The notes: generated by a model from the sequence alone, not told the origin. A DNA stretch of 64,000 nt from a virus (IMGVR_UViG_3300008110_000322:4494-68493), one strand, 5' to 3'. Positions 31,995 to 61,245 are shown, counted from the first letter of the stretch. Program-made: numbers and translations.

Positions 31995-34106
31995 GTGGGA
32001 AAATCTAACGATGTTTATCTTGGTAATCCGCTCCTAAAAAGAGCGCATACTGAGGGTGAGCTTACATACGAGCAAATCATTGAGCTAGCTAGATGTGAGC
32101 AAGATCCATTATATTTTGCAAGCAATTATATCCAGATTGTTACGCTAGATCATGGTCTGCAGCCATTTTCTCTTTATAAGTTCCAAGAGAAGATGTTGCG
32201 GACTTTTCATGATAACCGCTTCATTATTTGTAAACTTCCCAGACAGCCCCTAGCTCTTGATACTCCGGTACCTACACCAAGAGGGTGGACTACTATCGGT
32301 AAATTAAAAGTAGGAGATAGGGTATTTTCTTCTGCCGGCCAGGTAACAAGGGTTGTTGCAAAATCAGAAACTTATACCGATGCCGAATGTTATAGAATAA
32401 GTTTTGATTGTGAAGAGAGTATTGTTGTAGAATCTGACCACTTGTGGGAACTGTTCCTTAATGGTGAGAAAGTAATTAAGACAACCGCACAGTTGTTTCA
32501 AAATAGACACAATAATTATACTTTAAAAAGAGCGCCATTAAAAGGAAAAAATAAAAGGTTTCCAGAAAACTGGAATAATGAAATCACTATCACTTCAATA
32601 GAAAGGACAGATACTGTCCCGGTTGCATGTATTGAAGTCAAAGATGATACACACATGTTCTTATGTGGTAAAAACTTTATCCCACAAAAGAACTGTGGTA
32701 AATCAACTACTGTTGTATCTTACCTGATCCATTCATTGATTTTCAATGAGAAATTCTCCATTGCTATTCTAGCTAACAAGGCTAGTACAGCAAAGGATCT
32801 GTTAGCTCGGCTTGCAGTAAGTTATGAAAACCTACCAAAATGGATTCAAGCTGGTGTTAAATCTTGGAATAAAACTTCAGTAGAGCTTGAAAATGGTTCT
32901 AAAGTAATGGCGGCATCTACCTCAGCTTCTGCTGTGCGGGGTGGATCTTACAACATCATTTTCCTTGACGAGTTTGCATTCGTTCCAAACCAGATTGCGG
33001 CAAACTTTATGAACTCTGTCTATCCTACCATTACTTCAGGTGATAACTCCAAAGTTATCATTGTAAGTACCCCTAATGGTATGAATCTTTATTATAAAAT
33101 GTGGGACGATGCCCTCAATAAGAGAAATGAATATGTTCCTATTGAGATCAACTGGAATGATGTGCCAGGTAGGGACGATGAATGGCGTAGATCCGTTATT
33201 TCTAACATTGGTGAGCTTGCATTTGAACAAGAATTTGTCTGTTCATTCCTTGGATCTTCTAACACACTGATTTCTGGTAGTAAATTAGGGGCGATGAAGT
33301 TTGATAAGCCGATTAAATCCAGAAATAGTCTTGATGTTTATGAAGAACCAATAAAAGATCATGCTTATGTACTCACTGTTGACGTTGCTAGGGGTGTTAA
33401 TAAGGACTATTCCGCTTTTTCTGTTATTGATATCACAAAAATGCCCTATAAACAGGTGGCAAAATATCGTGATAATCAGATTAAACCTTTGATGTTCCCT
33501 TATGTAATCAAGGACGTAGCTGAACATTATAATAGAGCTTATATTCTATGTGAAGTTAATGACGTTGGAGATCAGGTTGCAACTGGTCTGCATGATGAGC
33601 TTGAATACGACAACATGTTGATGTGTAGCGTTAGTAGCAGAAAAGGCCAAGTTGTAGGCCAAAACTTCTCCGAAAAGGCTGCATGGGGCGTTAAGATGCA
33701 GAAGAATGTTAAGCGAATTGGTTGTCTTAACCTAAAAGCTCTAATTGAAGAAGATAAGCTCCTTATTAACGATCTTGATACAATCAATGAGCTAACCACA
33801 TTTATTGCGAAAGCTGGATCTTGGGAAGCGGATGACGGTAAAAACGATGATTTAGTAATTACTCTTATCATTTTTGCCTGGCTCTGCACGAACCAATACT
33901 TCAAGGATTTACAGGATCAAGACCTTAGAAAGAAGCTATTTGAAGAAAAAATGGCTAACGAAGAAGATGATATGCTACCTTTCGGGTTTGTGGATCTTCA
34001 GATAGAAGGTGATGCTAGTCAGGACTCAGAAGGTAATCTTTGGATGGCTGCCAACCCAGAAAGAGAGGTAGAACATCTGGCTCAACTCTGGGAATATTTC
34101 TATTAA
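31995..34106 (+). CDS. g17: terminase large subunit gp17 (intein-containing)
   Basis: YLGNPLLKRA, Walker A PRQ|CGKSTT, IFLDEFAF, IIVSTPNG, VDVARG...DYS and NDDLV nuclease motifs; GTG start. Confidence 0.96.
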   Translation: MGKSNDVYLGNPLLKRAHTEGELTYEQIIELARCEQDPLYFASNYIQIVTLDHGLQPFSLYKFQEKMLRTFHDNRFIICKLPRQPLALDTPVPTPRGWTTIGKLKVGDRVFSSAGQVTRVVAKSETYTDAECYRISFDCEESIVVESDHLWELFLNGEKVIKTTAQLFQNRHNNYTLKRAPLKGKNKRFPENWNNEITITSIERTDTVPVACIEVKDDTHMFLCGKNFIPQKNCGKSTTVVSYLIHSLIFNEKFSIAILANKASTAKDLLARLAVSYENLPKWIQAGVKSWNKTSVELENGSKVMAASTSASAVRGGSYNIIFLDEFAFVPNQIAANFMNSVYPTITSGDNSKVIIVSTPNGMNLYYKMWDDALNKRNEYVPIEINWNDVPGRDDEWRRSVISNIGELAFEQEFVCSFLGSSNTLISGSKLGAMKFDKPIKSRNSLDVYEEPIKDHAYVLTVDVARGVNKDYSAFSVIDITKMPYKQVAKYRDNQIKPLMFPYVIKDVAEHYNRAYILCEVNDVGDQVATGLHDELEYDNMLMCSVSSRKGQVVGQNFSEKAAWGVKMQKNVKRIGCLNLKALIEEDKLLINDLDTINELTTFIAKAGSWEADDGKNDDLVITLIIFAWLCTNQYFKDLQDQDLRKKLFEEKMANEEDDMLPFGFVDLQIEGDASQDSEGNLWMAANPEREVEHLAQLWEYFY
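32247..32693 (+). mobile_element. 149-aa mini-intein (class 3-like) in gp17 Walker A
   Basis: Insert PLALDTPVPTPRGWTTIGKLKVGDRV...SDHLW...VACIEV..HMFLCGKNFIPQKN followed by +1 Cys; removal restores KLPRQCGKSTT. Confidence 0.92.
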
Positions 34107-37024: not shown

Positions 37025-38725
37025 ATGGCTAAATTATTTGGTTTTTCTATTGATGATAACGAAAAACTAACACCATCTACATTGTCCCCCGTTCCTCCCA
37101 ATGATGAGGACGGGGTTGATCATTATGTGACTTCTGGCTTTTTCGGATCACATATAGATATTGAAGGTGTTTATAGAACGGAGTTTGATTTAATCAAACG
37201 ATACCGTGAAATGTCTTTGCACCATGAAGTTTCCAATGCGATTGAGGATATCGTAAATGAGGCCATTGTATCTGACACCAATGATTCTCCAATAAAGATT
37301 GAGCTTTCTAATCTAAATGCAAGCGAAGAATTAAAAGAGATCGTCAGGGGAGAATTTAAGACTATTCTGGAGCTTCTTGACTTTGACAAGAAAGCTCATG
37401 AGATTTATCGTAACTGGTATATTGACGGTAGACTCTATTATCATAAGGTAATTGACTTAAAGAAACCCACAGACGGAATTAAAGAACTAAGGTACATTGA
37501 TGCCATGAAGATGCGTCATGTACGTAGAGCAAAGGGAGAAGATAAGAGTAGACAGATTCTTAAGACAAACATCAAAGGAGAAGTCAATCCTATGGATTTA
37601 GCTTTCCCTGAAATTGAAGAGTATTTTGTATATCATCCAAGAGCAGAAAACCCAATCGGAACTCCGACAACTGGACAAACTGCTGGCTCTGATGCTGGTA
37701 TTAAGTTTACGAAAGATTCAATCACTTATTGCACATCTGGACTTGTAGACCGCAATAAAGGCACTACTCTTTCATATCTTAATATCGCAATTAAGCCTCT
37801 TAACCAACTAAGGATGATTGAGGATGCTATTGTTATCTATCGTTTGACTCGCAGTGTTGAGCGTAGAATTTTCTACATTGATGTGGGAAATCTACCTAAG
37901 GCAAAGGCAGAGCAGTTCCTACGTGAAACTATGCTCCGCTATCGCAACAAACTAAACTATAACTCAACCACAGGTGAAATCACTGACGGTAAGCGGTTTA
38001 TGTCTATGATGGAAGACTTCTTCCTTCCTAGACGTGAAGGTGGTAGGGGTACTGAGATTACGACTCTCCCACCCGGCCAGAACCTTGGGGAACTAACCGA
38101 TCTAAACTATTTCAAGAAAGAACTGTACAAAGCTCTTGAGATTCCCAGTTCTCGTATTGATGGTGATGGTGGGTTTAACCTCGGTAGGTCATCAGAGATC
38201 CTGAGAGACGAGGTTAAATTCTCTAAATTCGTAGGCCGTTTAAGAAAAAGGTTCTCAACCCTATTCATTGATCTCCTCAGGACTCAGCTTCTATTAAAGA
38301 ACATCGTAACCCCAGAAGACTGGGATCGGATGGTAGAGCACATCCAGTTTGATTTCCTTTATGATAATCACTTCGCGGAACTTAAGGAAGCTGAGCTTCT
38401 GTCTGAGAGATTAAATATTGTTTCTCTTGCTGAACCTTATGTTGGTAAGTATTTCTCACAAGATTATCTGCGTCGTAATATCTTGAAGCAGACTGACGAA
38501 GAGATCGTTGAACAAGATAAGCTCATTCAAAAAGAAATTGAAGATGGTATAATTCCAGATCCAGCTACTATTGATCCTACTACAGGGATGCCTTATCCAG
38601 AAGTTCCACCAGAAGGAGGAGATCCAGGGAATAATATTCAAGGTGATGGAGGTAAGATTCCCGTAGATCCTCAAGTTGATGCAGCTTCAGTAGAAGCGCC
38701 AAAGGTTAAGGGAGCAGAGATCTAA
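37025..38725 (+). CDS. g20: portal vertex protein gp20
   Basis: WYIDGRLYYHK, RRIFYIDVGNLPK and PRREGGRGTEITTLP motifs. Confidence 0.97.
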   Translation: MAKLFGFSIDDNEKLTPSTLSPVPPNDEDGVDHYVTSGFFGSHIDIEGVYRTEFDLIKRYREMSLHHEVSNAIEDIVNEAIVSDTNDSPIKIELSNLNASEELKEIVRGEFKTILELLDFDKKAHEIYRNWYIDGRLYYHKVIDLKKPTDGIKELRYIDAMKMRHVRRAKGEDKSRQILKTNIKGEVNPMDLAFPEIEEYFVYHPRAENPIGTPTTGQTAGSDAGIKFTKDSITYCTSGLVDRNKGTTLSYLNIAIKPLNQLRMIEDAIVIYRLTRSVERRIFYIDVGNLPKAKAEQFLRETMLRYRNKLNYNSTTGEITDGKRFMSMMEDFFLPRREGGRGTEITTLPPGQNLGELTDLNYFKKELYKALEIPSSRIDGDGGFNLGRSSEILRDEVKFSKFVGRLRKRFSTLFIDLLRTQLLLKNIVTPEDWDRMVEHIQFDFLYDNHFAELKEAELLSERLNIVSLAEPYVGKYFSQDYLRRNILKQTDEEIVEQDKLIQKEIEDGIIPDPATIDPTTGMPYPEVPPEGGDPGNNIQGDGGKIPVDPQVDAASVEAPKVKGAEI

Positions 38726-38728
38726 ATA
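38722..38728 (+). promoter_or_regulatory. late promoter (CTAAATA) for NDP-sugar genes
   Basis: Overlaps the g20 stop, 24 nt before the 38753 ATG. Confidence 0.6.
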
Positions 38729-38752
38729 AAAAATCTTTGAATCCCTTATAAC

Positions 38753-39685
38753 ATGAAAAATAAAAGAATTTTCATTACCGGGGGAACTGGATTCCTTGGT
38801 AGAGCATTGATTGGCAAATATTATGATAACAATACAATTACTGTTTATTCTAGAGACGAGGCAAAGCAATATTATTTGCAGAAACAGTTTCCAAGAATAA
38901 ACTGTGTTTGCGGTGATGTTAGAAATTATGATCTAATGCAAAGGGCAAGCAGAAATCATGATGTTGGTATTTTTACTGCGTCTTTTAAGCAAATTCAAGC
39001 TTGCCATGATAACTATGAAGAAGCAAATCAGGTAATTGTTCAGGGGGCATTCAATAGCCGTCGTTGTGCTGAAGAAAATGAGTTTGAATCAGCATGTTTT
39101 ATTTCCAGTGACAAGAGCCGATCTGCCACGACGATTTATGGGGCAATGAAATATGTTGCTGGTGAATCCTTCATTTCTAATAATCAAAAATCAAACGTAA
39201 GGCTCAGCACTGCCCTTTATGGGAATGTGTTGAATAGCACTGGTAGTATTATCCCGTTGATCTGGAAAAGCTTAAAAGATGGATTCAGTCTGAATCTCTA
39301 TGGGGAAGACATGACTAGATTCTTTATTGATGTTGAAGATGCAGCATCTATGATTGAATCGGCATTAAAATATGATGGGTATAATGTAATCCCCATCCTT
39401 CAGAGCATGAGAATCCTAGATCTATTTGAGATCTTTAAAGAGGAATTTGGATTAAAATATACAGTTTCGCGCCCAAGAGCTTGTGAAAAAACCCATGAAA
39501 TTATGGCGTCTCAAGATGAAATACCTAGAATTACAAAGCAAAATAACCTATACTTAATGCATCAAAATTTGATATATAATGAGGTTAATTTTCCAGATAA
39601 TCAGTATTCTTCTAAGGATTCTGTAATTAACAAAGAAGAACTACGTAGTTTTTTACGGTCAAAAAATTTCTATAAGCCAGAATGA
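38753..39685 (+). CDS. UDP-GlcNAc 4,6-dehydratase (PseB/FlaA1/CapE-type SDR)
   Basis: ITGGTGFLG, YSRDEAKQ, GDVRN, SSDK, YGAMK and YGNVLNSTGSIIP motifs. Confidence 0.85.
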   Translation: MKNKRIFITGGTGFLGRALIGKYYDNNTITVYSRDEAKQYYLQKQFPRINCVCGDVRNYDLMQRASRNHDVGIFTASFKQIQACHDNYEEANQVIVQGAFNSRRCAEENEFESACFISSDKSRSATTIYGAMKYVAGESFISNNQKSNVRLSTALYGNVLNSTGSIIPLIWKSLKDGFSLNLYGEDMTRFFIDVEDAASMIESALKYDGYNVIPILQSMRILDLFEIFKEEFGLKYTVSRPRACEKTHEIMASQDEIPRITKQNNLYLMHQNLIYNEVNFPDNQYSSKDSVINKEELRSFLRSKNFYKPE

Positions 39686-41304
39686 AGATCTTTGTATTTG
39701 GTGCAAGTGGGATGTTAGGCCAATACCTAACAAAATATCTTTCCTATTATTTTGAAGTAATCCCTATTACCCGCTATGAAATAGATCTGAGTAAAGAGAT
39801 ATCATCAATTACTCAAAAATATACTTTTAATAGCTCTGACGTAATTATCAATGCAGCCGGCGTCATTAAGCAAAGAGACTATTCTTCTGAAGAGTTGATT
39901 AGAGTTAATAGTCTATTTCCTCATTTCTTAGCTAGGCTCGGGTGTAATGTCATTCATATTACGACTGATTGTGTATTCAGCGGTAATACGGGCCACTATG
40001 ATGAGGATTCCCCTCACGACTGTATAGATGACTACGGTAAAAGTAAGTCTTTAGGTGAATGTAAAGAATTAACAGTAATTCGCACATCTATAATTGGCGA
40101 AGAGGTAAACAATAAAAAGTCTTTACTTGAAGTAATTAGGTCAAATAAACATTCTACCATTAATGGGTTTATCAACCATTTTTGGAATGGAATAACGTGC
40201 CTAGAACTTGCAAAACAGATCCGTAGCATTATTGAATCAAAATCCTACTGGAAAGGTGTAAGGCATTTCCACTCGCCCGACACTGTGAGTAAATTTCAGT
40301 TAGTATCTTATATTAACGAAATCTACGAATTAGGTAATAAGGTCAACCCTGTAATGGTAGATCATTGTGATAGAAGTTTATCTACAAAATATATTAATCC
40401 AGTCAAGACTACCATAGAAGCTCAAATTATTGAATTAAGAAACTTTGGAATTCCATATAAAGTTGAAGAACTTAGTATACAAGAAAAATTAGAAGGTTTT
40501 CCATCTGTAAACTTCATTAGTATTCCAGAATCCAAAGAAAGAAGAGTAAAATTGTGTGATACTTTATTGAGGTACGGAGTAAAGACCGTAAGGCCATATA
40601 TTTACGAAAGATACAAAAGTGGAGATCATAAAATAATATATCCTGACCCTAAAGAGCTGCCGGATTACAAATATGTGTTCCCGGATGCATGTATGGGAGC
40701 TTTTACTTCACACTTAAAAGCCATCAAAACTTGGTATGAATCTACCACTGAAGAATACGCTTTTTTCTGTGAAGATGATATTTCTTTTGAGACGGTTAAA
40801 TATTGGAACTTTACTTGGAAGCAATTTTTTAACAATCTCCCTAAAGATTGGGAATGTATTCAATTGTCCCTAGTTAGAGTTTTTCCAACTATGTTTGTAT
40901 TTTTTGATAAGGGAGTAAAACTTAGGGATAGGTGTTGGTGTGATTGGTCTGCTTGTGGATACTTGATTACCCGTGATAGAGCAAGAAAACTTCTTAATAC
41001 TTACTACAACGGTGATACTTTTGTTTGGGATTATAGAGGATCTGATAAACAACTTAGAAAAGAACAACATAATCAAACATGGCCTTACGAGCCGGGAATT
41101 GAAACCATACTTTTCAGTATCTTAGAGGATAAACCAGTTTATACTTTCCCTCTTTTGGTATTTGATGCTGAAGCCGATACAACAGTTTGGGGAGAGGATG
41201 AGAATCAAAAAAATATGTTCTCATATTCCCACATAGCTATTATGAATTGGTGGAAAACAAAAGGAAAGTCCTTGAGTATAAAGGATATTAGCAAACAAAC
41301 ATAA
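39682..41304 (+). CDS. RmlD-like NDP-4-keto-6-deoxyhexose reductase fused to GT25-like glycosyltransferase
   Basis: N-terminus: VFGASGMLG, INAAG, HITTDCVFSG, YGKSK, RTSIIG. C-terminus: FISIPESKERR, GAFTSHLKAI, FCEDD, LPKDWECIQL. Confidence 0.8.
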   Translation: MKIFVFGASGMLGQYLTKYLSYYFEVIPITRYEIDLSKEISSITQKYTFNSSDVIINAAGVIKQRDYSSEELIRVNSLFPHFLARLGCNVIHITTDCVFSGNTGHYDEDSPHDCIDDYGKSKSLGECKELTVIRTSIIGEEVNNKKSLLEVIRSNKHSTINGFINHFWNGITCLELAKQIRSIIESKSYWKGVRHFHSPDTVSKFQLVSYINEIYELGNKVNPVMVDHCDRSLSTKYINPVKTTIEAQIIELRNFGIPYKVEELSIQEKLEGFPSVNFISIPESKERRVKLCDTLLRYGVKTVRPYIYERYKSGDHKIIYPDPKELPDYKYVFPDACMGAFTSHLKAIKTWYESTTEEYAFFCEDDISFETVKYWNFTWKQFFNNLPKDWECIQLSLVRVFPTMFVFFDKGVKLRDRCWCDWSACGYLITRDRARKLLNTYYNGDTFVWDYRGSDKQLRKEQHNQTWPYEPGIETILFSILEDKPVYTFPLLVFDAEADTTVWGEDENQKNMFSYSHIAIMNWWKTKGKSLSIKDISKQT

Positions 41305-41311
41305 TGTTTAT

Positions 41312-41318
41312 CTAAATA
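41312..41318 (+). promoter_or_regulatory. late promoter (CTAAATA)
   Basis: Intergenic, 18 nt before the 41337 ATG. Confidence 0.7.
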
Positions 41319-41336
41319 AAACAAAAACATACTATT

Positions 41337-41486
41337 ATGGAAGACCTACTTGATCTAATGATTGCTGATGAATCTCCATCAGAAATTAGTGATACTATCA
41401 AAGATATTCTATTTGCAAAAGCTGCCGATAAGATTGACGGTTATCGCCCAGAAGTAGCACAAGCACTATTTGCAAGTAATGACTGA
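41337..41486 (+). CDS. 49-aa small protein (type normally found directly after g20; possible prohead core component)
   Basis: MEDLLDLMIADESPSEISDTIKDILFAKAADKIDGYRPEVAQALFASND*; not in the ORF track. Confidence 0.7.
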   Translation: MEDLLDLMIADESPSEISDTIKDILFAKAADKIDGYRPEVAQALFASND

Positions 41487-42168
41487 TTTGGAGGATCTTT
41501 CTTCCTTCTTTCAGACAGTTGCAATTGCCAAGAAAAAGAAAAGAGAAGAAATAGATAAACTTGTATCTACGTCTTTTGATGATCTTTTCCTGCAGCCACT
41601 CAAAGAGCAAATAAAGACTTCTCCCGAAAAGGTTATAGTAGAAGAGGTTGTTGTTGAGGATACTAAGCCGCAATTAATTGAGCAGTCAATTAAGAAATTA
41701 GATGAATCCTTAGCCGAACCTCCTCAGGTAAAGAATTCAGATCCTTTAACTCCCGTAAATCAAAAGTTTGCTACTTTAGAAGATCTTAATCGTCATTATA
41801 GTCTCTTTATTGGTAGAATTCAACAACAACTCGCCACTTTAGGCGGTGGTGGTGAAACTAATCTAGCTTTTATGGACGTTCCGATTACAACGGTAACGTC
41901 TAGCAGCTACCAGATAGGATATTCTGATTATTATATTGGGGTTAACTATGCTGGAGCGGTGACAATTACTTTGCCAAAAGCTGACAGGCAAGGAAAGAAG
42001 TTTGTGGTGAAGGACGAATTAGGAGAAGCATCTAAAGGTCAAAATCGTCATATTACTATATTACCTTACGGATCTGATCTGATTGATGGTAGAGATAAAG
42101 CTATAATCGCATATGATTATGGATCATTGACTTTTATTTGGAAAGACGGTAGTTGGAGAGTTGTTTAA
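41479..42168 (+). CDS. hypothetical virion protein with fibre-type C-terminal beta domain
   Basis: Helical N-terminus, QQQLATLGGGGE linker, C-terminal DYYIGVN..VTITLP..VVKDE..IDG..GSW domain; ATG at 41479. Confidence 0.7.
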   Translation: MTDLEDLSSFFQTVAIAKKKKREEIDKLVSTSFDDLFLQPLKEQIKTSPEKVIVEEVVVEDTKPQLIEQSIKKLDESLAEPPQVKNSDPLTPVNQKFATLEDLNRHYSLFIGRIQQQLATLGGGGETNLAFMDVPITTVTSSSYQIGYSDYYIGVNYAGAVTITLPKADRQGKKFVVKDELGEASKGQNRHITILPYGSDLIDGRDKAIIAYDYGSLTFIWKDGSWRVV

Positions 42169-43419
42169 ATGTCGCATCTATATGAACCATTCAAGCCAGA
42201 TTCAGATGCATTTGGTAGATTAAGAATATCAAATCCCTATACTTTAGGCGATTACAAACATCTTTATGCTATTGATCCAGATTTCGTAGATATTAAGGTT
42301 GGCACTGGCGCAACTGTAATTTTTGACGTTAATCAAGCAGCGGCAATTTTAAACTCTGGTATTAGTACAGACGGGTATTGTATTCACCAGACAAAGCGAT
42401 ATCATCACTATATGCCAGGTAAATCTCAATTGATTTACTCTACCTTTAATTTTGGTGATGAGCAGCAAAATGTTTATAAGAGAACTGGCTATTTTGACGA
42501 TAGGGATGGAATTTTCTTTGAGCAAGCCCCGGATGGTACTCTAAGTTTTGTTATCAGGTCTTATGTAACTGGTATTGCTTCGGATAGAAGAGTTACTCAA
42601 TCTGAATGGAATAAGGATCGGTTAACAGGGCAAGACCCCTCAGGGTTTACATTAGATATTACTAAAACTCAACTATTCTTTACTGATTTTGAATGGTTGG
42701 GTGTTGGTAGAGTTCGTTGTGGATTTGCAATTGATGGAAAGAATGTGGTATGTCATGAATTTTATAATGCAAACCAGCTTCCAACAGTTTATATGGCTAA
42801 TCCGAATCTTCCCGTAAGATGTGAAGTTAGGAATGTTGGCCCACAAGTAGGTATTGGTGGATCTTTTATTCAGATTTGCTCTACCGTAATGAGTGAAGGT
42901 GGTTATACCGAGGCAGGTAGAGAATTTTCACACACAACTAATCTTAGGGCTGTCGGGGTTGGTACTACTGTTCCCATTATGGCTATTAGACTTAAAAATT
43001 CATTTAAGGGATACCCAAATAGGGCAACAGTAAGACTGGAAGATATTTCTGTCTTCAGTAGCGGTTCAAACGTAAAGTATGAGGTAGTGAAATTAAGAAG
43101 TTCTGTTGGGATTAATTCTACCGGAACTTGGGTTTCAGAAAATACTGAATCTGTGGTTGAATATAATGAATCTGCTACTGGAATTAGTACGGTTTACTTT
43201 GAGGACTTTATGGGTGGATACGCTGCAGGGGACAGCCAAAATACACAAAAACCATCTGCGACAACAGCGGATGTTCAATCCGGTCCAATATCAAAGAAAA
43301 ATTATTTAACTCAAAACTTTGATTCAACGGATTCTGAAATCTTTTCAGTCCGCGTAAGTAATCTTGGAGCAGATGCTGCTAATGTGGGTGTATCTATTAG
43401 GTGGAAAGAGATTTATTGA
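42169..43419 (+). CDS. putative virion structural protein (beta-rich)
   Basis: DAFGRLRISNPYTL, YMPGKSQ and DFEWLGVGRVRCGF motifs recalled from phage structural hypotheticals. Confidence 0.65.
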   Translation: MSHLYEPFKPDSDAFGRLRISNPYTLGDYKHLYAIDPDFVDIKVGTGATVIFDVNQAAAILNSGISTDGYCIHQTKRYHHYMPGKSQLIYSTFNFGDEQQNVYKRTGYFDDRDGIFFEQAPDGTLSFVIRSYVTGIASDRRVTQSEWNKDRLTGQDPSGFTLDITKTQLFFTDFEWLGVGRVRCGFAIDGKNVVCHEFYNANQLPTVYMANPNLPVRCEVRNVGPQVGIGGSFIQICSTVMSEGGYTEAGREFSHTTNLRAVGVGTTVPIMAIRLKNSFKGYPNRATVRLEDISVFSSGSNVKYEVVKLRSSVGINSTGTWVSENTESVVEYNESATGISTVYFEDFMGGYAAGDSQNTQKPSATTADVQSGPISKKNYLTQNFDSTDSEIFSVRVSNLGADAANVGVSIRWKEIY

Positions 43420-46887: not shown

Positions 46888-49800
46888 ATGTCAAAGTATC
46901 TCAGTAACCGTCAAAAAAATCTAAAGATTGGCATTAGTTCTTATACTGAATCACAAACAGTATTAGAGGTTACTGGTAATACACTAGTTACTGGTGTTTC
47001 TACAATATCAGCAAATAGTTCTACTGATGCATTAAGAATTACTCAAACTGGAACTGGTAATGCTCTGGTTGTTGAAGATAGCACTAATCCAGATTCAACT
47101 CCTTTTGTTGTTACCGCTACAGGTTCTGTTGGTATTGGAACTACAAACCCAGAAGGAACTGGATCTGTATCATTATCTGGAATTGCCTTAGCAGTAAGAG
47201 GTACTGGATTTTTTAAAGATATCAGAATAGGAAATGCACACCCAAATCAATTTTTCCAAAGAATATCTGCCGAAGGCAACACAGGAATAAATTTTGAGGC
47301 TTATGGTAATTATGTTGGAGGATTTTATAGTACAGATTATCCTTTAGGTCTTCAGTTAAGAAATACTTCGGCATTATATTGGTCTAATACTACTTCGGCA
47401 GCATTAGCAGGAAATGCTGATCTTTACTTATATCGTGATAGTAGCGGAGTATTAGCACAAAGAAATGTCGGAGTAGGTCAGACCTTCCGCATATACAATA
47501 CTTTTACGGGAGTAACAACCAACTTTGAGAGAGCAAATCTTGGTTGGAATAATAATGTCTTTATTGTAGGAACTGAAAAAGGTTCTTCAATTGGAACTGC
47601 AAGACAAATGGAGTTCCAAACCGATGGAACCACCAGAGTTGCTATTACTACTACAGGTCTTGTTGGTGTTGGTACTACTAATGCCACTCAATCTTTAGAC
47701 GTTAATGGTAACGTAAGAGTACGGGGTGGTATAGTTGATAGTAATAATCAAATAGGACTAGCCGGCTCTATTCTGATATCTACTGGTATCGGAATAAGTT
47801 GGACAACTCCAGAAGCTGGGCTTAGTGTTCAGGGTTCACAAGGTACAACTGGCAGCCAAGGATCTCAGGGAACTCAAGGTAGTTTAGGAGTACAAGGATC
47901 TCAAGGAACCCAAGGTTTACAAGGTGTTCAAGGAACTCAAGGTGGATTAGGATCTCAGGGCTCAATTGGCGCTCAAGGTGTTCAAGGAAGAATTGGGGCT
48001 CAAGGTATTCAAGGTTCCCAAGGTGGACTAGGTTCACAGGGGGCTCAAGGTGGTCAAGGTTCAATTGGTGTTCAGGGAGCGCAAGGAACATTAGGCGCTC
48101 AAGGTGTTCAAGGAAATACTGGATCCCAAGGTGGTACTGGTTCGCAGGGAAGCCAGGGTTTATTAGGTTCTCAAGGCAGTCAAGGAACAACAGGTGCTCA
48201 GGGTTCTATAGGAGCACAAGGATTACAAGGAATTCAAGGTACCCAAGGTGGTTTAGCTGCTCAAGGTTCTCAGGGAACTCAAGGTGGATTAGGTGCTCAA
48301 GGTAGCCAAGGTGTCCAAGGTAGACAAGGGGCTATTGGTGCTCAGGGGTCTCAGGGTGTTCAGGGTGGTCTAAGTGCTCAAGGTGCCGCCGGTAGTCAGG
48401 GTGCCCAAGGTGGATTAGGTGCTCAAGGTATTCAAGGCGGTTTAAGTGCTCAAGGTGCCGCCGGTAGTCAGGGTGCCCAAGGTGGATTAGGTGCTCAAGG
48501 ATCCCAAGGTTCTCAAGGTGGGCTAGGTTCACAAGGTTCAACTGGAGCCCAAGGTTTACAGGGAACAAGCGGAACTCAGGGTAGCCAAGGAACTCAGGGT
48601 GGATTAGGTTCACAAGGTAGTCAGGGTACTCAAGGTGTCCAAGGTGGATTAAGCGCTCAAGGTACAGCAGGTAGTCAGGGTGCCCAAGGTGGATTAGGTA
48701 CTCAGGGGTCTCAGGGTGTCCAAGGTATTCAAGGAAGACAGGGAGCTATTGGGCCTCAGGGTCTTCAAGGTATTCAGGGTGGGCTGGCTGCTCAAGGTGC
48801 TGCAGGTAGTCAAGGTCTGCAGGGTGTTCAAGGTGGTTTAGCTGCTCAAGGCGCTGCGGGAAGTCAAGGCGGATTAGGCGCTCAGGGGTCTCAGGGAACT
48901 CAAGGTATTCAAGGTGTTCAGGGTGGTCTAAGTGCTCAAGGAAGTGCTGGCAGTCAAGGTCTACAGGGGTCTCAGGGAACTCAGGGTGGATTAGGTTCAC
49001 AAGGTAGTCAAGGATCTCAAGGTGGATTAGGAGCCCAAGGCGTCCAAGGTGGTTTAAGCGCTCAAGGTGGATTAGGTGCTCAAGGTAGCCAAGGATCTCA
49101 AGGTGGATTAGGCGCCCAAGGATCTATAGGCAGCCAAGGTTCCGTTGGCAGTCAGGGAACTCAAGGATTACAGGGATCTCAGGGATCACAAGGTACTACT
49201 GGATCACAGGGCTCTACCGGAAGTCAAGGGACTCAGGGTGGGTTAGGCGCTCAGGGTGTTCAGGGTGGATTAAGTGCTCAAGGTATCCAAGGTACTCAGG
49301 GTATTATAGGCCCAAAGGGTAATGACGGTAGTTCTGTTTCAATTATAGGATCTGTTCCTGATGTTAATGTAGCTCCTCCCAATGATCCCCAACAAACTTT
49401 AAATACTGCTTTCCCCTCCGCAGTTGCTGGTAATGGAGTTATTGATGAGCTTACTGGAGATCTTTGGGTTTATACAGGAACTAGTTGGAATAATGTTGGT
49501 AATATTCGCGGTCCACAGGGAACTACAGGAAGTCAAGGTGCTCAAGGATCTCAGGGGACTATAGGTGCTCAAGGATTTTCAGGTTCTCAAGGTAGCCAAG
49601 GTGCTCAAGGTGGTCTAGGTGTTCAGGGTTCACAAGGTACAACAGGCGCTCAGGGCGCTTCTGGAAGCCAAGGATTACAAGGAACTCAGGGTGTTCAAGG
49701 CGGATTAAGTGCTCAAGGTGCTGCTGGGGCTCAGGGCCTTCAGGGTGCTCAAGGCCCACAAGGAAGACAGGGTGTTATCGGTCCTCAAGGATTACAGGGT

Positions 49801-52800
49801 AGCCAGGGTGTTCAAGGCGGATTAAGTGCTCAAGGTGCTGCTGGGGCTCAGGGTGTTCAGGGTGGATTAAGTGCTCAAGGTAGTCAAGGGACTCAGGGTG
49901 GATTAGGTACCCAAGGTGTCCAAGGTGGGTTAAGTGCTCAAGGGACGGCCGGAAGTCAAGGTAGCCAAGGAAGTCAAGGAGTGCAGGGCGGCTTGTCAGC
50001 TCAAGGTGGAGCTGGTAGCCAAGGTCTGCAGGGTGTTCAAGGTGGTTTAGCTGCTCAAGGTAGCCAGGGATCTCAGGGAACTCAAGGTGGATTAGGTGTT
50101 CAGGGATTACAAGGTTCTCAGGGTGGATTAAGTGCTCAAGGCTCTCAGGGCACACAAGGGGGAATAGGAGTACAGGGAGTACAAGGTAGCCAGGGATCTC
50201 AAGGTGGATTAGGTGTTCAAGGTGTCCAAGGTGGGTTAAGTGCTCAAGGTGCTGCTGGTAGTCAAGGTTCTCAGGGAACTCAAGGTGGATTAGGTGTTCA
50301 GGGTCTACAGGGTGTTCAGGGTGGTTTAGCCGCTCAGGGTAGCCAGGGCACTCAAGGTGGCTTGGGGGTTCAGGGATTACAAGGTAGCCAAGGTGTCCAA
50401 GGTGGATTAGGTCATCAGGGCATTCAAGGTGTTCAAGGTGGATTAGCTGCTCAGGGTAGCCAGGGCACTCAGGGGGGTCTAGGTTCTCAGGGTGTTCAAG
50501 GTGGGCTATCTGCACAGGGCGGCACAGGTAGCCAAGGTCTGCAGGGTGTTCAAGGTGGTTTAGCTGCTCAAGGCAGCCAAGGATCTCAAGGTGGATTAGG
50601 TGCTCAAGGTGGCTTAGGTGCTCAGGGATCTCAGGGTGGAGTAGGCAGTCAAGGTTCTCAGGGAACCCAAGGTGGATTAGGTGTTCAAGGTGTCCAAGGT
50701 GGACTAAGCGCTCAAGGTGCCGCAGGTAGCCAAGGCTTGCAAGGTGTTCAAGGTGGTCTAAGCGCTCAAGGTGCTGCAGGTAGTCAAGGTTCTCAGGGCG
50801 TTCAAGGAACTCAAGGTATTCAAGGTGGTTTAAGTGCTCAAGGATCACAAGGTAGTCAGGGTACTCAAGGCGTTCAAGGTGGCTTAAGCGCTCAAGGTGC
50901 CGCAGGCAGCCAAGGATTACAAGGTGTTCAGGGTGGATTAAGTGCCCAAGGAACACAGGGATCTTCTGGTAGTCAGGGTGGTGTTGGTTCCCAAGGTTCT
51001 ATTGGTTCTCAGGGTAGCCAAGGAACCCAAGGTGGATTAGGTACTCAAGGATCAGGAACTCAAGGTGGATTAGGAGTCCAAGGTGTTCAAGGTGGTCTAA
51101 GCGCTCAAGGTGCCGCAGGAAGCCAAGGTGTTCAAGGTGGTCTAAGCGCTCAAGGGGCCCAAGGTGGATTAGGTTCTCAGGGATCACAGGGAACTACTGG
51201 CTCTCAAGGTGGATTAGGTGCCCAAGGTTTACAAGGCGTTCAAGGTGGATTGTCTGCTCAGGGAGCCGCAGGGGCTCAAGGATTGCAGGGTGTCCAAGGT
51301 GGTCTAAGTGCTCAAGGGGCGGCCGGCGCTCAAGGTTTACAAGGGGCTCAAGGCCCACAGGGACGCCAAGGTGCTATTGGCGCTCAAGGTGGATTAGGTG
51401 CCCAAGGTTTACAGGGTGTTCAAGGTGGACTATCCGCTCAAGGTGCGGCGGGAGCGCAAGGTCTCCAAGGGTCTCAGGGTGCCATCGGTTCTCAAGGTGG
51501 GCAGGGAACTCAAGGTGGCTTAGGTGTTCAAGGTGTCCAAGGTGGCTTAGCTGCTCAAGGCGGACAGGGCACTCAAGGTGGTTTAGGAGTTCAAGGATCA
51601 CAAGGGGGAATTGGTGCTCAAGGTGGCTTAGGTGCTCAAGGTCTCCAAGGCGTTCAAGGTGGTCTGGCTGCTCAAGGCGGACAAGGTACTCAAGGTGGTT
51701 TAGGTGCTCAAGGTGTCCAAGGTGGTTTAAATGCCCAAGGCGCGGCGGGTGCTCAGGGTCTACAGGGCACTCAAGGTGACATAGGTGCTCAAGGTAGCCA
51801 AGGTATTCAGGGCAGACAGGGTGCAATCGGTCCTCAAGGTTTACAAGGTATTCAAGGTGGATTAAGCGCTCAGGGAGCGGCAGGTAGCCAGGGTCTCCAG
51901 GGTGTTCAAGGTGGTTTGGCTGCTCAAGGTGGGCAGGGTACTCAAGGTGGTTTAGGCGCTCAGGGGTCACAGGGAACTACTGGCGCTCAAGGTGTTCAAG
52001 GTGGTCTAAGTGCTCAAGGTGCCACAGGAAGCCAAGGTGTTCAGGGTGGATTAAGCGCTCAAGGTTCACAGGGAACTCAAGGAGGATTGGGTGCCCAAGG
52101 TGTTCAGGGCGGACTGAGCGCTCAGGGGTCTCAAGGTGTCCAAGGTGGTTTGGGGGCTCAAGGCTTACAAGGGGCTCTAAATGCTCAGGGGGCCGCTGGG
52201 GCGCAAGGCATTCAAGGATTACAGGGCGCTCAAGGTCCGCAGGGTAGGCAAGGTGCAATCGGTCCTCAAGGTTTACAAGGATCTCAAGGAACTCAAGGTG
52301 GATTAAGTGCTCAGGGTGCTGCGGGTAGTCAGGGATTGCAGGGTTCTCAAGGTGTCCAGGGTGGATTGAGTGCTCAAGGTGGTGTCGGTTCTCAGGGTGC
52401 TCAAGGTGGACTCAGCGCTCAAGGTGCGGCCGGTGCTCAAGGGTTACAGGGATCACAGGGAACCCAAGGTGGACTAGGCGCTCAAGGTGTTCAAGGTGGA
52501 CTCAGCGCTCAGGGCTCTCAGGGTGTTCAAGGCGGTTTAGGTGCTCAGGGTCTACAGGGTATTCAGGGTGTTCAAGGTATTCAGGGTAGACAAGGTGCTC
52601 TGGGGCCCCAAGGTGCCCTAAATGCTCAGGGAGCCGCTGGCGCTCAAGGTTTGGTTGGTTCTATCGCTAACTATTCAAGAAAGACCTCTCTTTATACTGC
52701 AGTCAACAGAGATCAACTAATTGCTGATACTTCTGGTGGAACCTTTACCATTAACCTCCCAGCAACTCCAGCAACTGGTGATCTAGTAAGAATTGCTGAT

Positions 52801-53370
52801 GGAGCTAGCTGGGCAACCAACAACCTCACAGTAGGTCGTAATGGTTCAACAATTGAAGGCACTGCTGAAGATTTAACTGTTGATATTGCTGGAGTCACTC
52901 TTGACTTTGTTTATGATGGTACTACATGGGAAGTTTATCCCTCTACTGGACTTAGCGTTATTTCTCCAGTTGATGTAGTAACAAGTGCCACTTATTATCC
53001 AGTATTTGTTGATGGTGCTGGTGGAAATAGGGCGGCAAATATTAGAACAACGTCTACGGCATTTAGCTTTAATCCTGCAACTTGCACTTTGACTGCAGTT
53101 GACTTTAACTCAACTTCTGATATTAACCTAAAGACAAATGTACAAACAATTGAAAATGCCCTAGATAAAATAAATAAACTTGAGGGCATTACCTTCAATT
53201 GGAAGAGGGATAATCGTCCATCTGTAGGTATCATCGCGCAAGATGTTGAAAAAGTATTTCCTGAGCTAGTAATGGAGACTAACGGAGAAAAAACAGTTAA
53301 TTATAATGGCCTTATTGGATTATTGGTTGAGGCCATTAAGGATCTAAATAAAAAGTTAGAGAATACTTGA
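46888..53370 (+). CDS. collagen-like (Gly-X-Gln) fibre with C-terminal peptidase S74 intramolecular chaperone
   Basis: VGIGTTNP fibre motifs; about 1500 aa of G-X-Q triplets; C-terminal TSDINLKTNV..GIIAQDVEKVFPELV..VNYNGLIGLLVEAIKDL. Confidence 0.88.
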   Translation: MSKYLSNRQKNLKIGISSYTESQTVLEVTGNTLVTGVSTISANSSTDALRITQTGTGNALVVEDSTNPDSTPFVVTATGSVGIGTTNPEGTGSVSLSGIALAVRGTGFFKDIRIGNAHPNQFFQRISAEGNTGINFEAYGNYVGGFYSTDYPLGLQLRNTSALYWSNTTSAALAGNADLYLYRDSSGVLAQRNVGVGQTFRIYNTFTGVTTNFERANLGWNNNVFIVGTEKGSSIGTARQMEFQTDGTTRVAITTTGLVGVGTTNATQSLDVNGNVRVRGGIVDSNNQIGLAGSILISTGIGISWTTPEAGLSVQGSQGTTGSQGSQGTQGSLGVQGSQGTQGLQGVQGTQGGLGSQGSIGAQGVQGRIGAQGIQGSQGGLGSQGAQGGQGSIGVQGAQGTLGAQGVQGNTGSQGGTGSQGSQGLLGSQGSQGTTGAQGSIGAQGLQGIQGTQGGLAAQGSQGTQGGLGAQGSQGVQGRQGAIGAQGSQGVQGGLSAQGAAGSQGAQGGLGAQGIQGGLSAQGAAGSQGAQGGLGAQGSQGSQGGLGSQGSTGAQGLQGTSGTQGSQGTQGGLGSQGSQGTQGVQGGLSAQGTAGSQGAQGGLGTQGSQGVQGIQGRQGAIGPQGLQGIQGGLAAQGAAGSQGLQGVQGGLAAQGAAGSQGGLGAQGSQGTQGIQGVQGGLSAQGSAGSQGLQGSQGTQGGLGSQGSQGSQGGLGAQGVQGGLSAQGGLGAQGSQGSQGGLGAQGSIGSQGSVGSQGTQGLQGSQGSQGTTGSQGSTGSQGTQGGLGAQGVQGGLSAQGIQGTQGIIGPKGNDGSSVSIIGSVPDVNVAPPNDPQQTLNTAFPSAVAGNGVIDELTGDLWVYTGTSWNNVGNIRGPQGTTGSQGAQGSQGTIGAQGFSGSQGSQGAQGGLGVQGSQGTTGAQGASGSQGLQGTQGVQGGLSAQGAAGAQGLQGAQGPQGRQGVIGPQGLQGSQGVQGGLSAQGAAGAQGVQGGLSAQGSQGTQGGLGTQGVQGGLSAQGTAGSQGSQGSQGVQGGLSAQGGAGSQGLQGVQGGLAAQGSQGSQGTQGGLGVQGLQGSQGGLSAQGSQGTQGGIGVQGVQGSQGSQGGLGVQGVQGGLSAQGAAGSQGSQGTQGGLGVQGLQGVQGGLAAQGSQGTQGGLGVQGLQGSQGVQGGLGHQGIQGVQGGLAAQGSQGTQGGLGSQGVQGGLSAQGGTGSQGLQGVQGGLAAQGSQGSQGGLGAQGGLGAQGSQGGVGSQGSQGTQGGLGVQGVQGGLSAQGAAGSQGLQGVQGGLSAQGAAGSQGSQGVQGTQGIQGGLSAQGSQGSQGTQGVQGGLSAQGAAGSQGLQGVQGGLSAQGTQGSSGSQGGVGSQGSIGSQGSQGTQGGLGTQGSGTQGGLGVQGVQGGLSAQGAAGSQGVQGGLSAQGAQGGLGSQGSQGTTGSQGGLGAQGLQGVQGGLSAQGAAGAQGLQGVQGGLSAQGAAGAQGLQGAQGPQGRQGAIGAQGGLGAQGLQGVQGGLSAQGAAGAQGLQGSQGAIGSQGGQGTQGGLGVQGVQGGLAAQGGQGTQGGLGVQGSQGGIGAQGGLGAQGLQGVQGGLAAQGGQGTQGGLGAQGVQGGLNAQGAAGAQGLQGTQGDIGAQGSQGIQGRQGAIGPQGLQGIQGGLSAQGAAGSQGLQGVQGGLAAQGGQGTQGGLGAQGSQGTTGAQGVQGGLSAQGATGSQGVQGGLSAQGSQGTQGGLGAQGVQGGLSAQGSQGVQGGLGAQGLQGALNAQGAAGAQGIQGLQGAQGPQGRQGAIGPQGLQGSQGTQGGLSAQGAAGSQGLQGSQGVQGGLSAQGGVGSQGAQGGLSAQGAAGAQGLQGSQGTQGGLGAQGVQGGLSAQGSQGVQGGLGAQGLQGIQGVQGIQGRQGALGPQGALNAQGAAGAQGLVGSIANYSRKTSLYTAVNRDQLIADTSGGTFTINLPATPATGDLVRIADGASWATNNLTVGRNGSTIEGTAEDLTVDIAGVTLDFVYDGTTWEVYPSTGLSVISPVDVVTSATYYPVFVDGAGGNRAANIRTTSTAFSFNPATCTLTAVDFNSTSDINLKTNVQTIENALDKINKLEGITFNWKRDNRPSVGIIAQDVEKVFPELVMETNGEKTVNYNGLIGLLVEAIKDLNKKLENT
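47830..52660 (+). repeat. 9-bp-period coding repeat (GGN-NNN-CAR) with one globular interruption at ~49321-49509
   Basis: Hundreds of caaggt/cagggt units; GC-richer than the flanks. Confidence 0.95.
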
Positions 53371-55752: not shown

Positions 55753-56724
55753 ATGAATTTTGTAAAGGCCGTCCTTGATAATGGCGGAGATATAAAGCCT
55801 TTGGTTATTCCATCGGAGCTAACAAATGGAACCGGATTATGTAATCCATCCGTTTTTACTTTAAACGATAAAATATTAGTTAATCTAAGGCACATCCAAT
55901 ACACTCTGTACCATTCTGAGCTTTGTAAATATGAACATCAGTATGGTCCGTTGGTGTATCTAAATCCAGAAAATGATATAACCTTAACTACTACAAATTA
56001 TATCTGTGAACTTAATAATGATCTAGAGATTATCCACTATAGTAAGGTTGATACATCTTCTCTTGATAAGCCCCCTATTTGGGAGTTTGTCGGATTAGAA
56101 GATTCAAGGCTAGTAAAATGGGGGGATAAGGTTTATCTTACTGGTGTTAGGAGGGATACAACTACCAATGGTCAAGGTAGAATGGAGTTGAGTGAACTTG
56201 ATTTTACTGATACTGAAGTTAAGGAAATTGATCGTTTCCGTATTCCAGCCCCAGGAAAAGATGATTCATATTGTGAAAAAAATTGGATGCCAATTCTGGA
56301 TATTCCCTATCATTATGTAAAGTGGACAAATCCAACTGAAGTTGTAAAAGTTGACCCTGAAGAGAAAACATGCGAGACCGTTCATTTAGGTGAATGGAAG
56401 GAAATGCCGAAGGATCTTCGCGGAGGCTCTCAGGTAATTTCTTTTATGGATGGCTACCTGACAATCAACCACGAAACCGATCTCTATAAGAGCGAAGCTG
56501 GAAGAAAGGACGCAACCTATAGACATAGATTTACCTATTGGGATAAAGATTGGAATATTGTAAAGTTCTCTAAGGTCTTTAGTTTTATGGAAGCAAAGAT
56601 TGAATTTGCTTGTGGTATGGCTAAGCTTGAAGATGATTACTTAATTACTTTTGGGTTCCAAGATAATGCAGCTTATATTTTAAGAGTACCCGGACAATTT
56701 TTGGAGGACTTTATCAATGAATGA
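55753..56724 (+). CDS. beta-propeller glycosidase/phosphorylase-like protein (GH130/GH43-like)
   Basis: CNPSVF, GLEDSRL, CEKNWMP, LRGGSQ and IEFACG motifs. Confidence 0.65.
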   Translation: MNFVKAVLDNGGDIKPLVIPSELTNGTGLCNPSVFTLNDKILVNLRHIQYTLYHSELCKYEHQYGPLVYLNPENDITLTTTNYICELNNDLEIIHYSKVDTSSLDKPPIWEFVGLEDSRLVKWGDKVYLTGVRRDTTTNGQGRMELSELDFTDTEVKEIDRFRIPAPGKDDSYCEKNWMPILDIPYHYVKWTNPTEVVKVDPEEKTCETVHLGEWKEMPKDLRGGSQVISFMDGYLTINHETDLYKSEAGRKDATYRHRFTYWDKDWNIVKFSKVFSFMEAKIEFACGMAKLEDDYLITFGFQDNAAYILRVPGQFLEDFINE

Positions 56725-60498: not shown

Positions 60499-61245
60499 AT
60501 GGCGCAGCAACAAAAAGCCCCGCGTATCTATACGTATAAGATTACTTTTGAGGAAATTCGCCACTATTATTACGGAGTCCATAAAGAAAAGTTTTATGAT
60601 GATGGGTACATGGGCACACCCATAACCCATAAATGGATGTGGGATTTTTATACTCCAGAAAAACAAATACTTGAAATTTTTGATTATAATGAAGAAGGAT
60701 GGAGGCAGGCATTGCTTATGGAGACAGAATTAATCAAATATTTTTATGATACTGACCCATATTGTTTAAACGAAAGTTGTTCTGGTGTTTATTCATTAAA
60801 AAGTCGTTCTGCGGCAGGAAAATTAGGTGGTATTGCTGCAACGGATAAAGCCCGTGAGGAAGGAATAGGATTCTTTGCTTTAACGAAAGAAGATCGTAGT
60901 AAGCATGGTAAAAAATCCGCAGAAACCCATAAAAATAATGGGACTGGATTTTTCGGACCGGAACATAAAGAAATGGCTCGGAAGGGTGGATCTACAAGGG
61001 GCAAAAGGCATAAAGAAGAAGGTACTGGAATTTTTTCTATTTCAAAGGAAGAACGTTTGAGAAATTGCTCTAAGGGCGGTAAAACAGCAGGAAAACAAAA
61101 TTCTTATCTTATTACAGAAAAAGTTTGGATGTGTACTGTTACTGGTTTCATAACTACCGCAGGAGCATTAACTCCTTATCAATGTAAAAGGGGTATTGAC
61201 CCATCAAATCGCATTCAAATAAAACCCTATTCAAATCAAAAATAA
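60499..61245 (+). mobile_element. free-standing GIY-YIG-like (Seg-type) homing endonuclease
   Basis: IYTYKITF..YYYGVH..YMGTP, a conserved E (METELI) and N (CLNE); C-terminal G[IT]G[FI]F...KGG repeats; inserted between g21 and g22. Confidence 0.75.

Follow-up and report, generated by a model that had tools for sequence, protein, structure and literature searches.

A predicted rare-sugar donor cassette with a reductase fused to a glycosyltransferase-like domain in a freshwater T4-like cyanomyovirus

A two-gene cassette lies between the portal gene and a conserved small gene

We analyzed a 64,000-nucleotide (nt) stretch of viral DNA (IMGVR_UViG_3300008110_000322:4494-68493), referred to here as the window, and within it a pair of open reading frames (ORFs) that together form a candidate sugar-donor cassette. 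ORF1 encodes a predicted nucleotide-sugar dehydratase, and ORF2 encodes a reductase fused to a glycosyltransferase (GT)-like domain. A PHROG scan identified the window as the structural-gene region of a T4-like cyanomyovirus, running from baseplate genes through g13-g15-like genes, the terminase, g18, g19 and g20 to g21, g22 and g23. The g20 portal is ~70% identical to the portals of Synechococcus phages B3, B23 and S-SCSM1. Contigs from freshwater and lake metagenomes contain the stretch nearly unchanged, and 17 runs contain half or more of the sampled words. We conclude that the carrier of the cassette is a freshwater T4-like cyanomyovirus.

The pair sits, as the original prediction had proposed, between g20 and a small gene (Table 1), and reading the sequence directly confirmed that the two ORFs are coupled through an ATGA stop/start overlap. 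The product of the small gene is 51% identical (E 9e-17) to that of a small ORF directly after the portal gene in S-SCSM1. In that phage, a 51-amino-acid (aa) ORF lies 42 nt past the portal gene, and 893 nt separate the portal stop from the start of the prohead protease. The g20-g21 interval of the window (38726-59739) measures 21 kb, compared to 893 nt in S-SCSM1, and also carries fiber-like genes, two collagen-repeat proteins and a coupled trio of genes. Compared with S-SCSM1, the window has the cassette inserted between g20 and the conserved small ORF. A related IMG/VR contig (L001) has the identical gene order g18-g19-g20-dehydratase-fusion, and a megablast search of 38000-42200 against 50,697 phage records returned no match.

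Table 1. Coordinates of the cassette, its boundaries and a related downstream gene
Feature	Coordinates	Strand	Evidence or remark
g20 portal gene	37025..38725	+	Portal_T4 E 1.9e-180; upstream boundary of insertion
CTAAATA motif, late-promoter-like	38722..38728	+	31 nt upstream of ORF1 start
ORF1, 310 aa, Mg534-like UDP-GlcNAc 4,6-dehydratase/5-epimerase (predicted)	38753..39685	+	Polysacc_synt_2
ORF1/ORF2 stop/start overlap, ATGA	39682..39685	+	sequence read directly
ORF2, 540 aa, RmlD-like reductase plus GT-A domain	39682..41304	+	reading frame, domain matches
ORF2 residues 1-261, RmlD-like NAD(P)H reductase, predicted 3-epimerase/4-reductase	39682..40464	+	RmlD_sub_bind
ORF2 residues 262-540, GT25-like GT-A glycosyltransferase (predicted)	40465..41304	+	PHROG 2835, fold
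Conserved 49-aa ORF	41337..41486	+	PHROG 14164 E 2.4e-21; downstream boundary of insertion
Second GT25-like domain fused to FkbM methyltransferase, 487 aa	57958..59421	+	PHROG 2835 E 6.4e-44, residues 2-264

ORF1 resembles an inverting dehydratase from a giant virus

ORF1 belongs to the Pfam family Polysacc_synt_2 (PF02719; residues 6-268, E 9e-40, 137.1 bits against a cutoff of 20.2). Its best match in the Protein Data Bank (PDB) is 4TQG, which aligns with ORF1 residues 3-305 of 310 over its own residues 5-321 (E 8.6e-37). That structure is Megavirus Mg534, described as a UDP-N-acetylglucosamine (UDP-GlcNAc) 4,6-dehydratase/5-epimerase (PMC9614988). FlaA1/PseB (2GN4; 1e-30) and CapE (1.5e-25) match less well, and PglF/WlaL matches are partial, at 1e-11 to 6e-9. 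The NCBIfam equivalog models also fall below their cutoffs, with 161.3 bits against 407.75 for PseB (TIGR03589) and 95.6 against 730 for FnlA (TIGR04130).

The ORF1 sequence contains a Rossmann motif, TGGTGFLG, at residues 9-16, followed by S119-D120-K121 and Y129xxxK133, and the catalytic motifs align with 'stdk' and 'ygmsk' of 4TQG. A Tyr occupies the YxxxK site in ORF1 ('ygamk'), Mg534 and FlaA1, where CapE aligns 'mgisk'. ORF1 had been labeled a PseB/CapE-type dehydratase. The inverting, UDP-GlcNAc-type part of that label holds, and the best match together with this Tyr narrows the rest to Mg534-like. These comparisons support the prediction that ORF1 is an inverting UDP-GlcNAc-type dehydratase of the Mg534 kind. 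Neither ORF1 nor ORF2 has a hydrophobic segment (peak 19-residue hydropathy 0.99 and 1.31, respectively), and both proteins are predicted to be soluble.

Relatives of ORF1 occur in just 6 of the 50,697 phage records, and no cyanophage is among these six. The closest, at 32% identity, is in a 634-kb uncultured phage (LR745206.1) that provides the best phage-collection match for both ORF1 and the ORF2 reductase. In this phage, the ORF1 relative and a stand-alone reductase relative (45%) lie ~5 kb apart (430157-436832).

The reductase domain of ORF2 carries a cysteine in place of the RmlD tyrosine

The N-terminal part of ORF2 is an RmlD-like reductase, in agreement with the original prediction. 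RmlD_sub_bind (PF04321) matches residues 1-226 (E 2e-17, 63.6 bits against a cutoff of 27), and hhalign aligns the reductase profile to E. coli RfbD with 97% probability. The score against the RmlD equivalog TIGR01214 is far below its cutoff (65.3 bits against 224.05). In the RfbD alignment, C97 of ORF2 lies opposite the Tyr of STDYVF: ORF2 reads T-T-D-C-V-F, and the aligned RmlD structures (2ggs, 1vl0 and 8ctr) keep Tyr at the Cys position.

This substitution is a general feature of the family. We aligned the window protein with all 27 of its two-domain homologues and found that G7xxG10xxG13, T95-D96-C97, Y118xxxK122 and H166 are invariant in 28/28 sequences. Both C97 and Y118xxxK122 are kept in all 36 of the reductases aligned. 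At the position of the RmlD Tyr, the 147 motif-bearing homologues that we retrieved have Cys in 143 cases, Gly in three and Ala in one; none has Tyr.

A precedent comes from Mg535, described as a 270-aa RmlD-like 3-epimerase/4-reductase that keeps the Cys responsible for C3 epimerization in GDP-fucose synthase (PMC9614988). The T95-x-C97 spacing in ORF2 is the same as that of S107-x-C109 in the E. coli GDP-fucose synthase, Fcl (S107-S108-C109). An invariant Cys replacing the RmlD Tyr suggests Mg535-like 3-epimerase/4-reductase chemistry and a product of the UDP-N-acetyl-L-rhamnosamine (UDP-L-RhaNAc) type. We also considered H166 as the counterpart of Fcl His179 and dropped it after comparing the order of motifs with RfbD and Fcl.

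The C-terminal domain of ORF2 has a GT25-like fold

The C-terminal half of ORF2 matches PHROG 2835, 'glucosyltransferase', with an E of 3.6e-34. It had been described as GT25-like, which by sequence falls short of the Pfam level: Glyco_transf_25 (PF01755) matches residues 317-443 below threshold (E 3e-3; 17.8 bits, or 19.8 for the domain alone, against a cutoff of 24). Across the family, this model reaches E <= 0.01 in 16 of 28 members, the best at 5e-7.

By fold, however, the label holds. An AlphaFold2 model of residues 262-540 (pLDDT 93, pTM 0.92) has Mimivirus R655 as its nearest fold (9crz_B; Z 16.2 over 198 residues, rmsd 3.9). The catalytic domain of human ColGalT1 (8zgc_U; Z 14.5) and a bacterial β-1,4-galactosyltransferase (8xc8; Z 12.1) come next. 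Generic GT-A enzymes such as GnT-I and POMGNT1 score lower, at Z ~11.5 and below, and domain 1 of PBCV-1 A064R (2p6w) is also among the matches, at Z 9.8. Foldseek concurs (E 1e-8 to 1e-6), and matches in BFVD, a collection of predicted viral structures, are mostly annotated 'glycosyltransferase family 25'. An acidic DXD-type motif, E364-D365-D366, is invariant both in the 28 fusions and in a 28-sequence alignment of the domain. Judged by the modeled fold, this domain is a GT25-like GT-A protein with predicted transferase activity. It shares the fold and the acidic motif with ColGalT1 (GLT25D1), R655 and the bacterial lipo-oligosaccharide β-1,4-galactosyltransferases and differs from the nearest folds in sequence, with which it is just 11-16% identical.

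The GT25-like domain is not confined to this cassette. T4-like cyanophages S-SCSM2R, S-SCSM1 and P-SSM2 encode stand-alone GT25-like genes that are 25-29% identical to the ORF2 domain, and its usual fusion partners elsewhere are FkbM and Methyltransf_24 methyltransferases and GT11.

The fusion is real and rare

An assembly error could have joined the two domains of ORF2. Homologues over the whole of ORF2 and independent assemblies both indicate that the fusion is real. Among the 120 best listed clusters, 36 span 99-100% of ORF2 at 48-97% identity; 27 of these have two domains (520-556 aa), and nine, ~800 aa long, add either another GT25-like domain or a GT17 domain at the N terminus. Contigs from all four independent runs bridge the ORF1/ORF2 junction, and those from three span the ORF2 domain boundary near 40440-40480, with no indels reported at either place. 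The remaining run (X3) has no contig over 40338-40610. In a sister cluster, that of P0007, one 27.5-kb contig has separate gene calls of 325 aa for the reductase and 201 aa for the GT part, representing either a split form or an assembly frameshift.

The architecture is as unusual as had been supposed. After clustering at 50% identity, matches over both domains came from only two of the 150 representatives listed. Not one of the 157 phage records that match extends over 80% or more of ORF2, which sets ORF2 apart from the gene sets of S-SCSM2R, S-SCSM1 and P-SSM2. The GT part is missing from all 22 prokaryote loci (drawn from 185,579 prokaryote species), one of which has an adjacent ORF1-type dehydratase. 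So far, the reductase-transferase architecture appears only in viral and metagenomic sequences. Large T4-like cyanophages are described as also holding NDP-sugar epimerases (PMC12801897), and in the papers searched we found no description of the dehydratase-reductase pair or of the fusion in cyanophages. What is new here is the predicted presence of a giant-virus/bacterial-type rare-sugar pathway in a tailed phage, with its reductase joined to a transferase.

It had further been proposed that the fusion channels the sugar straight to the transferase. An AlphaFold2 model of full-length ORF2, built from the 28-row alignment (pLDDT 77, pTM 0.57), lends no support to channeling; the substrate half of the reductase is poorly modeled, and the inter-domain geometry is not confident. 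In relatives, the chain includes one or two additional GT domains, which makes the fusion look more like a modular protein for assembling glycans than a dedicated tunnel. It resembles PBCV-1 A064R and Megavirus Mg539, which has three GT domains, in placing several glycan-building activities on one chain. Unlike these proteins, which combine transferases or methyltransferases alone, ORF2 includes an enzyme of nucleotide-sugar synthesis.

The dehydratase and reductase form a conserved pair

To the related contig L001 we added the 80 best of 518 metagenome matches, giving 81 reductase loci. An ORF1-type dehydratase ends within a few bases upstream on the same strand in 36 and lies elsewhere in the locus in 23. 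It is absent from 12 loci, and in the other 10 the upstream DNA is shorter than 900 nt. Among the 36 adjacent cases, two show an identity of just 25-28%. Nine loci encode the fused form, and six of these have the dehydratase directly upstream; in L084 it directly precedes a GT17-reductase-GT25 gene. The suggestion that the dehydratase and reductase are a conserved gene pair is therefore borne out.

In eight loci, the neighbors are glycan genes, encoding FkbM, Methyltransf_24 and TylF methyltransferases, GT2, GT11, GT17, a sulfotransferase and GDP-mannose dehydratases. L086 (108-12040), which is plainly a cyanophage, carries the cassette with a 786-aa reductase-GT-GT protein between talC-PTOX-zwf-gnd and speD-thyX-phoH. 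This difference in position between the window and L086 indicates that the cassette moves between genome positions.

Base composition and a late-type motif

The original prediction held that the pair is more AT-rich than the core genes. For total GC content this is so: 0.349 for ORF1 and 0.343 for ORF2, compared to 0.40-0.46 for g18-g20 and 0.399 for the window. At third codon positions (GC3), however, the values of 0.296 and 0.290 are the same as those of most neighbors and typical of the 37 genes measured, which range from 0.18 to 0.42. The lower total GC therefore sits in codon positions 1 and 2, reflecting amino-acid content and not a foreign codon signature, and we rejected base composition as an argument for recent foreign origin.

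A copy of CTAAATA precedes the pair (Table 1) and also the dehydratase of L001. We take this motif to resemble the T4-type late promoter. The window contains 16 copies against 17.2 expected by chance, so the total count is unremarkable; their placement is more telling. Fifteen copies lie on the + strand, and 12 fall 22-59 nt upstream of one of the 37 gene starts, within the 60 nt considered, including those of g18, g20, g21 and g22. The sites include 17641, 34131, 36987, 38722, 41312, 43426, 59714 and 61311. CTAAATA is likely the late-promoter motif of this phage. Given the translational coupling and the late-type motif before the pair, ORF1 and ORF2 are probably produced together with virion proteins, and the sequence suggests late co-expression of the cassette with virion genes.

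A proposed route to a 6-deoxy-L-HexNAc donor

With reasonable though far from full confidence, we read the two genes as a self-contained cassette comprising a sugar-donor pathway and a transferase, with an Mg534/Mg535-like route to a UDP-6-deoxy-L-HexNAc. ORF1, going by homology, would convert UDP-GlcNAc to UDP-4-keto-6-deoxy-L-IdoNAc through 4,6-dehydration and C5 inversion. The N-terminal domain of ORF2 would then epimerize C3 and reduce C4 with NAD(P)H, yielding a UDP-6-deoxy-L-HexNAc that would most likely be UDP-L-RhaNAc. Finally, the GT25-like GT-A domain, whose EDD motif is of the Mn2+ type, would move a sugar, most likely this one, onto a cytoplasmic acceptor. We infer the substrate, product stereochemistry, GT donor, acceptor and timing from sequence.

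The closest characterized system is that of Megavirus chilensis, in which Mg534 and Mg535 are described as having been shown experimentally to produce UDP-L-RhaNAc (PMC9614988; PMC4691112). Both systems consist of a Polysacc_synt_2 dehydratase of ~310-320 aa with YxxxK, followed by an RmlD-like module of ~260-270 aa. In both, the two genes are encoded by the virus and lie side by side, close to genes for multi-domain GTs. Unlike its Megavirus counterpart, which is accompanied by the glycan genes Mg536-Mg539, the cassette belongs to a tailed cyanobacterial phage, and its reductase, which we liken to Mg535 by description, shares a chain with a GT25-like domain; we saw no 2-epimerase of the Mg536 type in the window.

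Bacteria provide a second parallel. Vibrio cholerae O37 makes UDP-L-RhaNAc with WbvB, an inverting UDP-GlcNAc dehydratase, followed by WbvR, an RmlD-like 4-reductase. The cassette, set beside WbvB/WbvR by description, follows the same logic as this pathway and that of CapE/FnlA. Its weaker CapE match and low FnlA score distinguish it from the latter.

Several observations weigh against this assignment. Scores so far under the PseB, FnlA and RmlD equivalog cutoffs mean that neither ORF is orthologous to a characterized bacterial enzyme. The hhalign alignment of the reductase profile to Fcl covers residues 1-38 only, so the proposed Cys equivalence is drawn from motif position. Similarly, the likeness of the reductase module, which extends to residue ~261 and includes Y118xxxK122, to WbvR and the 270-aa Mg535 was judged by description. 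In two of the fused loci (L080 and L081), we found no dehydratase within 5 kb. Lastly, relatives have a GT17 or a second GT25-like domain in the same polypeptide, which makes it less clear which GT uses the product.

Virion or host glycan as acceptor

Our preferred acceptor, which we put forward tentatively, is a phage structural protein, either a fiber or another virion surface protein. The preference comes from analogy with Megavirus, where L-RhaNAc and 4-O-methyl-L-RhaNAc are described as decorating the fibrils (PMC9614988). Besides this precedent, the late-module position of the cassette and the glycan genes on either side of the fiber genes point the same way.

The same pathway could instead serve a host cell-envelope glycan, such as the lipopolysaccharide (LPS) core, O-antigen or another lipid-linked sugar, and remodel the cell surface, for instance to block superinfection or alter recognition. 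We consider this a genuine, if somewhat doubtful, possibility. Several observations pull away from the virion and toward the host. Characterized bacterial GT25 enzymes act on lipo-oligosaccharide (the Pfam name is 'LPS biosynthesis protein'), and a bacterial β-1,4-galactosyltransferase is among the top folds. Cyanophage GT genes are usually read as host-surface or DNA modification functions, and the host-surface reading is customary for their clusters, according to the account in PMC12801897. The clusters of relatives, with GT2, GT11, GT17, sulfotransferase and GDP-mannose dehydratase genes, resemble O-antigen clusters. The L086 cassette sits among metabolic auxiliary genes rather than structural ones, which weakens the argument for a virion acceptor. 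On the other hand, a late-type motif precedes the cassettes of the window and L001, both of which are located within the late structural module, and in the window the cassette and the second GT25-like gene flank the fiber genes. We saw no gene for a flippase, polymerase, ligase or initiating transferase in the window, although the contig is 68.5 kb long, so these may lie elsewhere.

One specific form of the virion acceptor fails. The ColGalT1 and R655 folds raised the idea of collagen-type hydroxylysine glycosylation on the neighboring fibers, which we ruled out because their repeats are G-X-Q, with Lys at 1/448 Y positions. Ser or Thr occupies 158/448 X positions in these repeats.

A broader proposal, which we regard as unlikely though worth stating, is that the whole 21-kb g20-g21 block is a mobile 'fiber plus glycan' module with which the phage, like giant viruses, would glycosylate its virion by itself. 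The two fused GT25-like enzymes, one linked to the reductase and the other to FkbM, would then attach and methylate the 6-deoxy-L-HexNAc on the fibers between them, and the outcome would be altered host recognition or a protected particle. The FkbM-linked protein is a possible partner in the same glycan, a link drawn only from its shared domain family and its position. In addition to its GT25-like domain, it matches Methyltransf_21 at residues 293-409 (E 3.2e-11).

Other products and other targets

The pair might make a different 2-acetamido-2,6-dideoxyhexose, an alternative we think rather unlikely. If the reductase is without 3-epimerase activity, the product would be UDP-6-deoxy-L-AltNAc or UDP-6-deoxy-L-IdoNAc; if ORF1 is a retaining dehydratase, it would be UDP-D-QuiNAc or UDP-D-FucNAc. 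The first variant is consistent with ORF1 scoring higher against PseB, which acts without C3 epimerization, than against FnlA (161 and 96 bits), and with a Cys-to-Fcl equivalence not confirmed by alignment. For the second, giant viruses of another clade are described as combining a dehydratase with 4-reductases for D-QuiNAc and D-FucNAc (PMC9614988). However, the best full-length solved match of ORF1 is the inverting Mg534 and not the retaining PglF/WlaL. An invariant Cys in place of the RmlD Tyr is also hard to explain in a plain 4-reductase, and it agrees with the description of Mg535 (PMC9614988).

It is very improbable that the reductase is an ordinary RmlD completing dTDP-L-rhamnose made by the host for use by a fused rhamnosyltransferase, with ORF1 adjacent incidentally. 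RmlD is indeed the best family in both Pfam and NCBIfam, the homologues are labeled 'dTDP-4-dehydrorhamnose reductase' in their sources, and L080 and L081 lack a nearby dehydratase. Nevertheless, the TIGR01214 score reaches 65 bits of the required 224, the Tyr of STDYVF is a Cys, 36 of the 81 loci have a UDP-GlcNAc-type dehydratase immediately upstream, and in the window, which contains no RmlA, RmlB or RmlC gene, this dehydratase is translationally coupled. Glycosylation of phage DNA at a modified base as protection against restriction, which the PHROG label 'glucosyltransferase' and a proposal made for cyanophage GTs (PMC12801897) would allow, is scarcely credible, since the near folds are all GT-A enzymes with protein or glycan acceptors, the fusion partners of the GT25-like domain are sugar methyltransferases and other GTs, as fits glycan building, and we saw no gene for a base hydroxymethylase in the window, although the contig is partial.

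The preferred Mg534/Mg535-like reading yields a concrete prediction, a rare L-RhaNAc-type sugar. Cyanobacterial hosts are not expected to make such a sugar in bulk, so it could be used as a chemical tracer to distinguish decoration of the virion from that of the host surface. Glycan genes have long been known in large cyanophages. To our knowledge, none has an assigned product or target, and the cassette ties the glycan genes of tailed phages to an experimentally characterized Megavirus pathway.

Neighboring genes in the window

The fiber-like genes of the g20-g21 interval have glycan-enzyme genes on both sides. Two collagen-repeat fiber proteins built from G-X-Q triplets are encoded at 46888-53370 (2160 aa) and 53372-55717 (781 aa), with Gln at 304/448 and 63/104 Y positions, respectively. 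The 2160-aa protein ends in a C-terminal Peptidase_S74 chaperone domain, and the two genes explain a GC peak of 0.48-0.56 in the window. Behind a TATAAATA motif follow three overlapping genes at 55753-59421, encoding a 323-aa protein, a 414-aa TPR protein and the 487-aa GT25-FkbM protein. The first two match viral hypothetical families, and the 414-aa protein gives TPR and FkbM leads only.

Elsewhere in the window, a single ORF of 4031 aa (5531-17626) matches the baseplate-wedge family phrog_2885 over ~3380 residues. The large terminase gene (31995-34106) has a GTG start and encodes 703 aa, compared to ~550 aa in S-SCSM1; as its Terminase_6N match does not start until residue 234, the protein appears to have an extended N-terminal part or an insertion there. 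An HNH endonuclease gene lies near the baseplate genes (2136-2714), and a homing-endonuclease-like gene lies between g21 and g22 (60499-61245).

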